Source of the DNA: Chiloscyllium plagiosum | Taxonomy: Eukaryota | Assembly: GCF_004010195.1 (NCBI RefSeq) | Contig: NC_057758.1 | Span: 1,384,927 to 1,448,926, forward strand | Reading direction: 5' to 3' | Length of the DNA stretch: 64,000 nt | Shown here: positions 44,816 to 51,886 of the stretch, piece by piece | Layout of the letters: every line of letters begins with the position of its first letter | Numbering within the stretch: the first letter of the stretch is position 1 | Program-made: the position numbers and the translations under genes | Notes under the pieces: generated by a model | Told to the model about the DNA's origin: nothing | Seen by the model: the letters and a program-made list of their open reading frames with translations, nothing else | Database searches by the model: none

Positions 44816-44928
44816 TCATGTAATAAAACAGCAGATGGCATTGAAGGAACATTCCCTGCTGACGGAAAGCTCATTTGCATCACAGCCTTCTTCTCTGCAG
44901 ATCCCTCCAGCACGCTCACATTTCATTA
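44816..44928 (-). CDS. Beta-defensin-like gene, exon 2 (mature six-cysteine peptide)
   Basis: Acceptor ttcctttcttttttctcag. Phase-1 exon xMKCERAGGICREEGCDANELSVSRECSFNAICCFIT*. Spacing C-X6-C-X4-C-X10-C-X5-CC with GxC before C2 and Glu in the C3-C4 loop fits the beta-defensin signature. Confidence 0.9.
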
Positions 44929-44999
44929 CTGAGAAAAAAGAAAGGAAGTCTCATTTAATACAATGACCAGTACACTAACGGCTTAAAACAACGAAACCA

Positions 45000-46060
45000 C
45001 ACTGAGCATTATGGGGGCCAGCACTGTGCACCGTGCTCCTAGTGTGGTGTAACACAGGTATTTGTTGATCAGAAGAGTGTACATTACCCTTAGTGTGGTC
45101 TAACTTAGAGTATGGGGATTAGGACTATGCACAGTGCTCCAGTGTGGTATAAGTTGGAAGTTGTTGAGGCAGGTATATCAACAACATTTAAAAGGCAAAA
45201 GTTTGGAGGATATTGGCTTAGTGCAGGGAAATGGAATTAGTGTAAGTGTGCACTTTAGCCAGCATGGACCAGCTCCAGCCAAAGGGCTGAAGTTTCATGC
45301 TGCAGGACTCTATGACTCCATAACAAATGGACACAGAGCCAGAACGGTTGCACAGTAGTTAGCACTGTTGCCTCACAGCGCCTGAGACCCGGGTTCAATT
45401 TCCGCCTCAGGTGACTGACTTTGTGGAGTTTGCACGTTCTCCCTGTGTCTGCGTGGGTTTCCTCTGGGTGCTCCAGTTTCCTCCCACAGTCCAAAGAAGT
45501 GCAGGTCAGGTGAATTGACCATGCTAAATTGCCCGTAGTGTTAGGTAAGGGGTAAATGTAGGGGCATGGGTGGGTTGCGCTTCGGCGGGTTGGTGTGGAC
45601 TTATTGGGCCGAAGGGCCTGTTTCCACACTGTAATGTAAAGTAATCTAATCTAAACTGTACACAATGTTCCACGTATGTTTGAAGTGAGTGATATAGTTT
45701 CCAGAAACGTGTACAGTGCTCCCAGTAAGATGTAACTGAGGAATATTATAATTGGAACAGTACACAGTGCTCCATGTTTGGTCTGACAGACCAATCGGAC
45801 GATAAGAATATTGTACTTTGCTTCCAGTGTGCTTAAACGCAGGGATATAGAGATTGGAACTCTGCATGGTGCTCTAAGTGTGGTAAGACTGAGGGACATA
45901 GAGACCAGAACAGTGCATAGGTTCCACGTACGATCAAACTGAGGGATATATTCATCAGAACTTTGCATAGTTCTCCACGTATGGTTAAACTGAGGGATAT
46001 AGTTAGCAGGACATTTGTCAGTGCTCCCATTGAGGCCTAACTGTGGGATATGTAAAAAGA
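45000..46060 (-). repeat. Degenerate ~51-bp minisatellite in the defensin intron, split by a SINE (45345-45655 plus)
   Basis: Recurrent ctgtgcacagtgctcc..tgtggt..aactgagggatat; reverse complement of the core at 54075-54580. Confidence 0.65.
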
Positions 46061-46559
46061 GCTGCATGGTTTCACAGAAAGCAGGTGATATCATGCCTTC
46101 TTTCAGAATTTCATTTTTAGAGATGATTGAATTACCCGGAGATGTCCGAATAACCATTTGACTTGGTCACGTGAGCAGCTCGTAAGTCGCACGAATGGTC
46201 GAATTGATTGGTTGAAAAGAGATAGTTAAAGAAAGTGTGGGAATGGGGTGTAGGTTGGATTATTTTAGGCATATTTCGGCTCGGGAGCATGAAGGCACAT
46301 CCACCAATGACAGAAGAAAGAAAATCAGGATCTGTCCCAAAGGACGCAATTGGAGGTATGTAGATAACTTGCAGGATCGATTGATTCGATGGTATGAAGG
46401 CACAGATCAACCATGATCCTCTTTCATGTCAGTACAGGTTTGAAGGCTGAATGAGTACCCTCTGTGCCAATCAGTATTTTAGCAGATTGAGCACTGAAAG
46501 ATGTATCAGGAACAAAAAAGAAAAATACGTTATCTTTTATTGTTCAAAAATACTCCGAA

Positions 46560-46866
46560 AGGCGGCACAGTGGCACAGTGGTTAGCACTGCTGCGTCACA
46601 GCGCCAGAGACCCGGGTTCAATTCCCACCTCAGGCGACTAACTGTGTGAAATTTGCACACTCTCCCCGTGCCTGCGTGGATTTCCTCCGGGTGCTCCGTT
46701 TCCTCCCACAGTCCAAAAATGTGCAGGTTAGGTAAATTGCCCATAGTTTTAGGTGATGGGGTAAATGTAGGGGAATGGGTCTGGGTGGGTTGCGCTTCGG
46801 CGGGTCGATGTGGACTTGTTGGGCCGAAAGACCTGTTTCCACACTGGAAGTAATGTAATCTAATCT
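46560..46866 (+). mobile_element. HE1-like SINE
   Basis: Full-length copy with A/B boxes and aatctaatct tail. Confidence 0.92.
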
Positions 46867-46980
46867 CAACTCATGCCATTTACGTCATGGTTGCAAGGAT
46901 CAGGAGCAATGCTTTCTCCAGATTTCACTGAGCTTCTCGGATAAGCAGTGAGATGGGTGGAGCACAGACGTTCTTTTATG
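46867..46980 (-). pseudogene. Decayed promoter and signal exon (MRKV type), truncated by a SINE
   Basis: cataaaagaacgtctgtgctccacccatctcactgc..gagaag resembles tataatgagcttctgttctccaggagctcactgc..gagaag (52634-52683). Then CTG-EKALLLILATMT*MA*: start lost, stops present. Confidence 0.45.
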
Positions 46981-48966: not shown

Positions 48967-49017
<51 letters not shown>

Positions 49018-50989
49018 TAAACGTCCTGAGGGTTTCCATTGAGAGAGAATCTGACCATAGCCACTTGACATTCAATTGTATTGCCATCATTGAATTCCCT
49101 CATGATTAAGAACCTGGAAGATTACCATTGACCAGAAGTTGAATTGTAGTCAACAAATCATTAATTTGCTATAAGGCCAGGTTTGATGCTAGCAATCCTG
49201 CAGCGCGAAGCTGACTTCCTGACTCTCTTCCTAAAGCCTGTCCATAAGGCTCATGTCAGCTGTGTGATGAAATACTCTCTATTTACCTGGATGGGTGCAG
49301 CTCCAACTATACTCAAGACACTCAACACAGTTCAAGAGAAATCAGCCCGCCTGATTGACACCACATTAAAAAAGCAGACTTAAACCAGTTTCTTTGTTTT
49401 GGATAATCAAAACGTGAACTTACTGGACAAATCTGTAAGTTTGGCAACATCTGCGAAGAGAAAGCAGAGTGAACGTCTCATCAACTTCACCTTCAAAACT
49501 CAGTAGCCGCATTGTGTACCATTTAATATGTAATACTTTGAAAGTGAAGTCGCTGATAGACAGGATAGTGAAAGCTGCTTTGGTACTCTTGCCTTTGTTG
49601 GTCAGTGTGGGACTGTTGGATCTAATGGCCTGTTTGCACACTGTAGGGATTCTATTGAAACAGGGGTGATGCTTCGTACCTCATTCAAAAGCATCTACTA
49701 CCACCACGGATGCTCGGAAGTACCAGCGTGTTCTATGTGCATGACGAACTGCAGCGATTCAATAAATCTCCTTGTAGATCTCTTTACGAATCCAAGGTGA
49801 GATCTGTCAGCGGATGGTCTGAGAGGATTATGCATGAGGAATATGCTGCACCATGATTTCAGAGATTGTGGCTAAATTAAACTTCACTGGCGCCACATGG
49901 ATGCGCATATTCGAGATTCCACATCTGTCCAGACTCTACTCCATTTGGCACAATAACTGTACCTAACAGCAGAACTGTCCTCAGTGTGAAGGCAACATTT
50001 CATCTTCACCAGGACTGAGTGGTATTCATGCCTACCAGTGATGATGTGGAACAATATATTCGAGGCAGAAAGATGTGTATAAAGGAAGCCAAACACATCA
50101 TTTCCCTTTCTGCTGGTTCACTTGCCACGACCTGCATGAAGACTTTGGCTTTCACAAAACGATCAATGTGTCTATTCTTTGGAGGAACCAAGACTTCCAT
50201 CGTGAAGGCGATTCAAGTCCCAAAACAGAATGGATTAGGAGTACTGGTTCCACTCCACCAGTTTATTACTGGGTTTTTTAACGTTGTAGCGGAAAAGGCC
50301 ATCAGCTGAAGGAGGGTGGTCGGTGGTAATCAGCAGGAGGATTGCTTTACCCTATCTTCCATAATGACAGGGCGTCCCCAGGGCTTGTAACAGATGGATT
50401 TGGCTGTAAGATATGACTCTATATGAATGGCGTTGTTTGAACTACAAGATAAGAATGATTCTGTCTGTTTTTTTTTGTCAACTCCCATTCTAAGGCATTG
50501 AAACAAGTTTTATTGCCACGATTCAGAAAGAAGCAGGTCAGAGGTCATCATGCTCCCAATGTGTTCACTGAAAATATTGAGATAGGGACTGTCCACTGTG
50601 ATCCCAGTGTCTCGAACTGAGGAATGGTGGAGTCCAGAATTACGTACAGTGTGGTATTCCAAAGGGAGATTGAGACCATCCCTACGTCCAGCCAGCAAAG
50701 TCTAGTCTAAACAAGGTATTTGGGGAAAGGAACAGTGTACAGTGATCGCGGTATGTCTGTGTAAGGGATATTGAGACCATAAAGCTTCACAGTGCTCCTA
50801 CTGTGATTTAACCAAGGGACATGCAGTCCAGCTGTGTGCACAGTGCTTTCAGTATCGTGTAATCAAGGGATATGGAGGCCAACCGTTTCTCAGTGACCTC
50901 ATGTTGTCTTACCAAGGGAGGATCCGGACCAATGTTCCAAGTAGTCACTCACCGAGGGAGAGAGGGATCAGAACGTGCACAGTGCTCCC

Positions 50990-51197
50990 AGTTAAAAATC
51001 ACACAAACCCAGGTTATAATCCAACAGGTTTAATTGGAAGCAGCAGTGTGGAGTACAACTGGATGAAGGAGCCACAACCACCTGATGAAGGAGCAGCGCT
51101 CCGAAAGCTAAAGGTTTTCAATTAAACCTGTTGGACTATACTCTGGTGTTGTGTGATTTTTAACTTTTTTCACCCCAGTCCAACACCAGCATCTTCA
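50990..51197. mobile_element. Palindromic Penelope-derived mini-element
   Basis: Inverted arms gttaaaaatcacacaa..ccaggttata.tccaacaggtttaattggaag / caattaaacctgttggactata..ctggtgttgtgtgatttttaac. Confidence 0.75.
51082..51110 (+). ncRNA. Minimal hammerhead ribozyme motif
   Basis: CUGAUGA-A-GGAGC-AGC-GCUCC-GAAAG-CUA; stem III reduced to palindromic AGCU. Confidence 0.75.
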
Positions 51198-51795
51198 AGC
51201 AGTGCTCCCAGTGTGACTAAACCAATGGATAAGTACATCAACTCTATGCGCAATATTTTCTTCTGTATGGAAAATATTAAGAACAGAAGGAGACACAAGA
51301 GCAAGTTACCAGACACTGTTGAAGCGGGTATTATTTGAAAGAACGTTTAAGAGTGTTCGTACAGAGCTCATTCCACAACTCTAGGATGAGACAGCTGAAT
51401 AAAATCCCAAAATGACACACTGTCTGATTTCTTGGAATGCATCATAATTAGAAGGGTATGGGTGACCGGAATTGTTATTTTGACTGGAGGAGATTGAATT
51501 GATTGAGAGGGGCGGGTCAAAGAGAGATATGAAAGCATGTCCCTGTTCAACGTGTAAATGAGGTTACTAAGGACAGCTTCTTGGTGAATATTTGTTGAGG
51601 GTGTAAATTGAACAGTTCTTCGAAATTTCTCCAAAATGAGGTGACAACGTCTCATTCAGAACCAGCGGGAATAGGAATCTGGGCCGATTTAAAGAAAGCA
51701 ACAAAAAAAACACTCAAAAAAAAATCAGTTGCAAAACAGCAAACGCTTGAAGAACTGTATGATTCCACATTTATTTTTCACAGAGATGTACTAAC

Positions 51796-51886
51796 CAGGT
51801 AATAACATTTTTTGCCTCGATTCTCCCTCCGCAATGACGGCTTCCGCAACTACGATGATTATTAGGAGCAAGAGCAGTGATTTCAT
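51796..51886 (-). CDS. Beta-defensin-like gene, exon 1 (signal peptide and short propiece)
   Basis: aagATG; MKSLLLLLIIIVVAEAVIAEGESRQKMLLP plus G, then gttagt donor (phase 1). The phase matches exon 44816-44928, joining as GTA=Val. Hydrophobic core with a V-I-A cleavage motif. Confidence 0.8.

Follow-up and report, generated by a model that had tools for sequence, protein, structure and literature searches.

The genome of the shark Chiloscyllium plagiosum carries, on contig NC_057758.1 of the NCBI RefSeq assembly GCF_004010195.1, a stretch of 64,000 nucleotides (positions 1,384,927 to 1,448,926 of the forward strand; hereafter the window, to whose first letter all positions below refer) in which the exons of several beta-defensin-like gene units are found in repeat-rich animal DNA. 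In the whole 64 kb, a single intact copy of exon 1 and a single intact copy of exon 2 are present; both lie on the minus strand, and the interval between them contains a dead exon of each kind. In vertebrates, beta-defensins are described as consisting of a leucine-rich signal exon and a mature-peptide exon with a six-cysteine motif (PMC515299, in the portion available), and defensin clusters as rich in pseudogenes (PMC2807441, likewise in part), and the accessible text of PMC6795676 describes the antimicrobial peptides of cartilaginous fish as little studied. Here we describe the two intact exons, the decayed exons between them, and the possibility that the gene they would form arose from the halves of two tandem paralogs.

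The intact exon 1, which belongs to the unit that we call X, has a coding span of 30 codons plus one base (51886-51796) and, with a hydropathy of 4.12, is the sole clear signal-peptide exon among seven candidates of a six-frame scan of the window, the remaining six being repeats or interrupted by stops. Further upstream on the minus strand, the window holds no signal exon besides one repeat-like candidate containing a stop. The TATAAA ahead of this exon (Table 1) is missing at the corresponding aligned place of the dead exon 1 copy. The intact exon 2, which belongs to a second unit, Y, is the only non-repeat sequence of the two that match the six-cysteine beta-defensin motif in the six frames of the window; no further intact exon 2 is found downstream of it within the window, and its acceptor ranks first among 438 AG sites by a home-made score. 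Its cysteine spacing of 6/4/10/5 agrees with the beta-defensin motif C-X4-8-C-X3-5-C-X9-13-C-X4-7-C-C. When joined in phase 1 across an intron of 6867 nt, the two exons give an open reading frame of 204 nt, encoding 67 amino acids (aa) with six cysteines and without an internal stop.

The joined product is plausibly a secreted, acidic beta-defensin-like precursor, if the pair is transcribed and spliced as its sequence suggests. Mature beta-defensins usually, though not universally, carry a net positive charge, and their fold is held by disulfides 1-5, 2-4 and 3-6; the part encoded by exon 2 has no such charge, with four K+R residues against six D+E and an isoelectric point of 4.71. The best Pfam family of the peptide is PF13841, at 13.5 bits and an E value of 0.098, which is under the curated cut-off of 22.2. 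The Atlas score of 0.83 is a lead only, and both of the listed Atlas clusters are beta-defensins, while a single-sequence structure model of the peptide is poor (predicted local distance difference test score, pLDDT, 59; predicted template modelling score, pTM, 0.31).

The minus-strand layout that a preliminary description of this DNA had put forward, namely an exon 1 at 51886, a dead cysteine exon at 47383, a dead exon 1 at 46980 and a cysteine exon at 44928, is real, as borne out by motif, signal-exon, cysteine-skeleton and nhmmer evidence. The dead cysteine exon, which is probably exon 2 of unit X, has a skeleton above chance in a frameshift-tolerant scan, in which 4 of 2134 bins reach its score, the intact exon, the block itself and a TG-rich repeat being among these four. 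Its acceptor ranks 35th by the score used above, and exon 1 spliced to it instead would encode 65 aa with a single cysteine. A second cysteine block just past it (about 47235-47120), which would make it a two-domain exon, was rejected, being not above chance (200 of 2134 bins). The dead exon 1 of unit Y is a true paralog of the intact exon 1 (nhmmer E 2.3e-6); together with the about 200 nt of promoter homology that accompany it, it ranks top of 1548 tiles. The short interspersed element (SINE) that interrupts its coding part differs by 13.6% from the nearest of seven other copies compared, these being a subset of the copies in the window.

Both first exons are followed by an array of 51-bp repeats, which recurs in a third unit, Z, and as a trace near 1100 in unit W, an inverted duplicate of Z; its orientation relative to the gene is identical in every unit bearing it, and the array is, judging from this distribution, an ancestral intron feature of every unit. 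The preliminary description had singled out this repeat as common to the intact exon 2 and the dead exon 2 of Z. It is indeed present ahead of both, but it also lies behind the MKS exon of X (51000-50545) and, since every unit has it, is of no use as a type marker. Its placement bears instead on the number of units: between the live exons there are a second exon 1 and a second array on the same strand, and an array behind each exon 1 means two tandem paralogous units, so that the outer exons come from different copies, the live exon 1 heading unit X and the live exon 2 ending unit Y. Directly past the X array, at 50441-50262 on the minus strand, an AG was seen by eye at a Y-like distance from a shared short motif, with a later AATAAA; this candidate dead exon 2 has a C-x4-G-x motif by eye and no peptide signal (987-1533 of 2134 bins).

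From this arrangement we tentatively propose a history that we consider quite possible, if still short of probable, in which the gene would be the join of two once-working tandem paralogs, brought about by complementary decay and splicing. An old tandem duplication would have given two same-strand beta-defensin units, X upstream and then Y, each with an exon 1, an intron containing the 51-bp array, and an exon 2, and both would have remained functional through a period in which their peptides diverged. The exon 2 of X would then have been lost, as would the promoter and exon 1 of Y; a transcript begun at the X promoter would extend to the poly(A) signal of Y, and splicing across the long intron would connect the X donor with the strong acceptor of Y, the two being in phase 1, to yield the 67-aa precursor. 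The sequence shows directly the parts and how they are ordered, their frame and their paralogy; that the pair is transcribed and spliced, in what sequence the events took place, and that both units formerly functioned, we infer from these. The preliminary description had likewise supposed that one gene lost exon 2 and the other exon 1, with shared phase-1 introns allowing the join, and the sequence fits this, the live exons lying in different array-bearing units. The outer exons have kept every signal, and their original partners are ruined; a single transcript using the strongest acceptor would be the simplest account.

Such a gene would deserve the name of chimera only if the inner halves had once worked, a question on which simulations of decay have a bearing. 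With the age of the SINE taken as d 0.07-0.14 and 4000 neutral runs per exon, the share of runs that left the exon intact was 17-3% for exon 2 and 35-14% for exon 1, which suggests that both outer exons are still under selection; multiplied, the two shares give a joint survival of about 6% (d 0.07) and 0.4% (d 0.14). With the X-Y split calibrated on exon 1, at a total d of 0.6-0.7, a simulated copy of the intact exon 2 that had been dead since the split had a median alignment score of 96-78, against the 23.5 observed for the dead cysteine exon. Among 1500 runs with a dead-from-birth copy, none at d 0.6 and 1 at d 0.7 scored as low as that value (plus 5), and five cysteines would have been retained in 9% and 6% of the runs, respectively. 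The dead cysteine exon looks, on these figures, like a once-working, diverged exon rather than a copy dead at birth, a reading which assumes that it is the exon 2 of X and that change in the living exon did not greatly outpace the neutral rate.

Several observations weigh against the proposed join of two units. The dead cysteine block aligns in DNA to no other exon 2 of the window, lies 3 kb past the X array with repeats between, and by a rough count could arise by chance in about 5-8%; the gap from its end to the promoter homology of Y is only about 165 nt and contains neither AATAAA nor ATTAAA. The intron contains six AATAAA and three ATTAAA, in addition to one AATAAA just past the donor, at which transcripts might end early, and the window has six assembly gaps, all of them below 23.8 kb. 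As for the simulations, the alignment argument weakens to 11% at a total d of 1.0, the simulation meant to date the death of Y exon 1 gave a flat profile (1-8 of 4000 runs, whichever d between 0.07 and 0.6 was used), and survival of 3-35% per exon leaves room for two lucky orphans. In addition, no usable orthologue of exon 2 was found in word-based searches (24-77 aa; 78-2000 aa; two-sequence alignment), for which exon 1 is too short, and HMMER retrieved from 1.84 billion representatives no orthologue and a single match, an unrelated 569-aa repeat protein whose best family is bacterial Ig-like and which was rejected as a homologue. Among PDB sequences, one search gave one weak match (guamerin, E 0.48) and a second none, so that no related solved sequence was found there. 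Alternatively, the outer exons might always have been partners, the inner block being a truncated tandem duplication or insertion, never functional, that persists as a fossil in the intron of an ordinary gene. The short gap without a poly(A) signal is what a truncated duplicate would leave, and the dead exon 1 is slightly nearer to X than to the MRKV copies; this history nevertheless appears unlikely to us, as it predicts in unit X an alignable copy of the intact exon 2, where none was found, and the dead-from-birth simulation fails to yield the dead cysteine exon, so that a further deletion, or a greatly accelerated divergence of the living exon, would have to be assumed. We regard as quite unlikely the view that the two intact exons are orphans of separately dying genes, neither transcribed nor spliced together, even though all other units seen in the window (V, W, Z and the inner halves of X and Y) are dead, the two lesions of V indicate a recent death and hence that recent deaths occur here, and no homologue emerged from the searches; the start, the donor, the top-ranked acceptor, the six cysteines, the stop and the AATAAA have all been kept, whereas the original partners carry several lesions each, and the joint neutral survival is as low as given above. 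Exon sharing does occur among beta-defensins, as in mouse Defb17 and Defb41, which have a first exon in common according to the available portion of PMC2807441, and the intact exon 2 could accordingly be served by another first exon, outside the window or unrecognised, or the intact exon 1 be shared with other exons. This is very unlikely in view of the single stop-containing, repeat-like candidate upstream and the lack of another intact exon 2 downstream in the window.

The type labels call for separate consideration, as the preliminary description had held unit Y to be of the MRKV type, from which it would follow that a peptide of the MRKV lineage is now driven by a promoter of the MKS type and expressed in a new pattern. 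For the dead exon 1 of Y, the description as a SINE-cut exon 1 stands, but the MRKV label does not: in local alignment it reaches a z of 11.0 with the MKS exon of X against 8.5 and 4.8 with the two MRKV copies (Z and W), its coding part 5.0 against -0.3 and -0.3, and the coding part with the SINE excised 7.1 against 1.3 and 0.5, and X is its best match in all three local comparisons. The global alignment is nearly star-like, with upstream identities of 83/152 for X-Y, 84/156 for Y-Z, 93/173 for X-Z and 109/154 for Z-W, coding identities of 42/92 (X-Y), 27/71 (Y-Z) and 39/80 (Y-W), and upstream sites shared almost evenly (28 by X and Y, 27 by Y and Z, 22 by X and Z), an even split that the MRKV assignment of Y can claim in its favour. 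It can also claim the word CTCACTGC, common to the 5' untranslated regions (UTRs) of Y and both MRKV copies, and the stretch from the array end through the 3' UTR of the intact exon 2 and the exon 2 of Z, which is weakly collinear (E 0.0005 including the array). The likeness of these two exons noted in the preliminary description persists in weak form when the 3' UTR is included (z 3.5; 11 and 3 of 722 tiles reach the score), but the exons taken by themselves do not exceed chance (z 1.9; 48% of tiles reach the score), and the two are, weakly, positional paralogs to judge from the alignment. Against the MRKV assignment stand the local comparisons and the array scores, in which Y as query gave 39.3 bits with X and 28.5 with Z, and Z as query 44.4 with X and 18.0 with Y, so that Y-Z is the best array pair in no comparison. 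The glycine ahead of the second cysteine is likewise found in the dead cysteine exon and in V, and is general to beta-defensins; the comparison with an exon at 2495, described below, fails. Moreover, peptide likeness in this window would in our view reflect time under selection rather than kinship, and eight-residue likenesses cannot then assign types. Since all three supports of the type labels failed or are weak, the claim of an MRKV-type peptide under an MKS-type promoter is unsupported, and we hold such a swap to be highly improbable. As X has no alignable exon 2 for comparison, the positional paralogy of the exons of Y and Z does not place Y nearer Z than X. The alignments are fairly read as making X, Y and the MRKV pair paralogs of about the same age, Y inclining towards X; their near equidistance would make the event a join of sister copies, not a swap between defined types. 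That the gene is a fixed chimera of two long-diverged defensin genes, each formerly under its own regulation, and that it arose through complementary decay with read-through splicing and not through deletion, is a stronger statement, and one that we consider distinctly doubtful.

Table 1. Features of the beta-defensin-like units in the 64,000-nucleotide window, in the order of their discussion.
Feature	Positions	Strand	Remarks
Intact exon 1 (unit X, MKS...)	51796..51886	-	Signal peptide and short pro-piece; phase-1 donor GTTAGT
TATAAA, unit X	51985..51990	-	About 104 nt 5' of start codon
Intact exon 2 (unit Y)	44816..44928	-	C-x6-C-x4-C-x10-C-x5-CC, then stop
AATAAA	44676..44681	-	135 nt 3' of exon 2 stop
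Dead cysteine exon, probable exon 2 of unit X	47240..47383	-	Five of six cysteines, one stop, frameshifts, weak acceptor
Dead promoter and exon 1, unit Y	46866..47075	-	Start codon lost, two stops in 16 codons
SINE in coding part of Y exon 1	46561..46865 (about)	+	Interrupts Y exon 1
51-bp intron array, unit X	50545..51000	-	Behind intact exon 1
Repeat stretch between X array and dead cysteine exon	47430..49700		Interspersed and simple repeats
51-bp intron array, unit Y, first part	45660..46045	-	Behind dead exon 1
51-bp intron array, unit Y, last part	45000..45155	-	About 70 nt ahead of acceptor
51-bp intron array, unit Z	53496..54590	+	Repeat-interrupted
MRKV-type dead exon 1 and promoter, unit Z	52510..52765	+	Head to head with unit X
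Dead exon 2, unit Z	54722..54850	+	Putative positional paralog of intact exon 2, heavily decayed
Unit W	1017..2103	-	Inverted duplicate of Z: promoter, MRKV exon 1, intron, array trace
Dead exon 2, unit V	42793..42905	+	Good phase-1 acceptor, two visible lesions
'2495 exon' region	2394..2652		Matches X-Z intergenic spacer; no recognisable exon

Among the other units of the window, V lies tail to tail with the intact exon 2 and is its closest peptide paralog (score 62 against a background top of 43; 12 of 24 residues identical). The two lesions of V are a change of the first cysteine to tyrosine and a one-base shift ahead of the cysteine pair. No exon 1 or 51-bp array was found for V within the window, and its 3' flank does not align with that of Y (93 and 203 of 722 tiles reach the score); a giant inverted duplication in which V would mirror the intact exon 2 was, for want of these, not established. 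For unit Z, an alternative exon 2 at 54613 (11 of 2134 bins in one mode, 258 in the other) was set aside, the alignment of the intron ends favouring the exon listed in Table 1. The 2495 region, to which the preliminary description had likened the dead cysteine exon, does not sustain that comparison: the DNA similarity of the two is nil (z 0.2 and -0.2), the region shows no cysteine skeleton (903 and 1300 of 2134 bins reach its score), and its best DNA match is the spacer at 52251-52450 between the head-to-head promoters of X and Z (z 6.3, 2362 tiles), which continues the W-Z duplication (E 1.3e-12). The short peptide likeness between the 2495 region and the dead cysteine exon is reached by 13 of 2134 bins, and that of the intact exon itself by 51 of 2134. 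The head-to-head pair of X and Z (51770-53620) has an inverted, decayed counterpart at 1017-2992, in which the W-Z match is clear, and a weak MKS-like remnant on the plus strand at 2667-2992 stands at the mirror position of X (seventh-ranked of 1550 tiles, z 2.8). The promoter and 5' UTR of Z (52551-52691) also contain a short inverted self-match (E 2.3e-7).

Repeats are found elsewhere in the window as well. About 6 kb of satellite with a 27-bp period occupies 31796-37640, where it forms three blocks and switches orientation near 34.5 kb, and a repeat with a 6-bp period at 61450-62384 (about 149 GCTGGA-like units) gives rise to the spurious match to the cysteine motif. The stretches 17317-20527 and 24481-27585 are 64-70% identical and represent either a direct duplication of older date or a long AT-rich repeat that is present twice, and at 3852-4318 part of a SINE has been recently duplicated in tandem, with a period of 242 bp and a 96% match.

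At present, the locus would be one case of a known process, as read from its sequence, and implies neither a new function nor a change of expression; its unusual trait is that both discarded halves are still readable in the intron. A literature search, whose reach excluded most subscription papers, retrieved no shark beta-defensin cluster and, among the matches listed, no complementary decay in vertebrate beta-defensins. If confirmed in RNA and dated in relatives, the locus would be a fossil record of two tandem paralogs halving into one gene. If the proposed history is true, exon 1 and exon 2 of clustered defensins may differ in their histories, which would affect both trees and annotation; if such re-pairing recurs among the defensins of this genome, the uniform phase-1 introns would offer a routine route to new pairs of promoter and peptide. 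Compared with the vertebrate beta-defensins (PF13841, Defensin_beta_2; PF00711, Defensin_beta), the gene described here is similar in its cysteine spacing, its two-exon plan and its occurrence in a pseudogene-rich cluster, but the shark peptide falls below the Pfam cut-off, is acidic and has no close homologue that we could find. In SPAG11 and in mouse Defb17/Defb41, as far as the accessible parts of the sources relate, exons are also re-paired across beta-defensin loci, but their alternative exons are alive, whereas the inner exons here are dead and one product is possible. Tandem duplications have been reported to yield chimeric genes in Drosophila yakuba (PMC5460883, in the portion available), in which the 5' part of one unit is likewise put before the 3' part of another; those chimeras are young, were joined at DNA breakpoints and had their change of expression measured, whereas the join in the shark would be old and made by splicing over fossils that have been retained.

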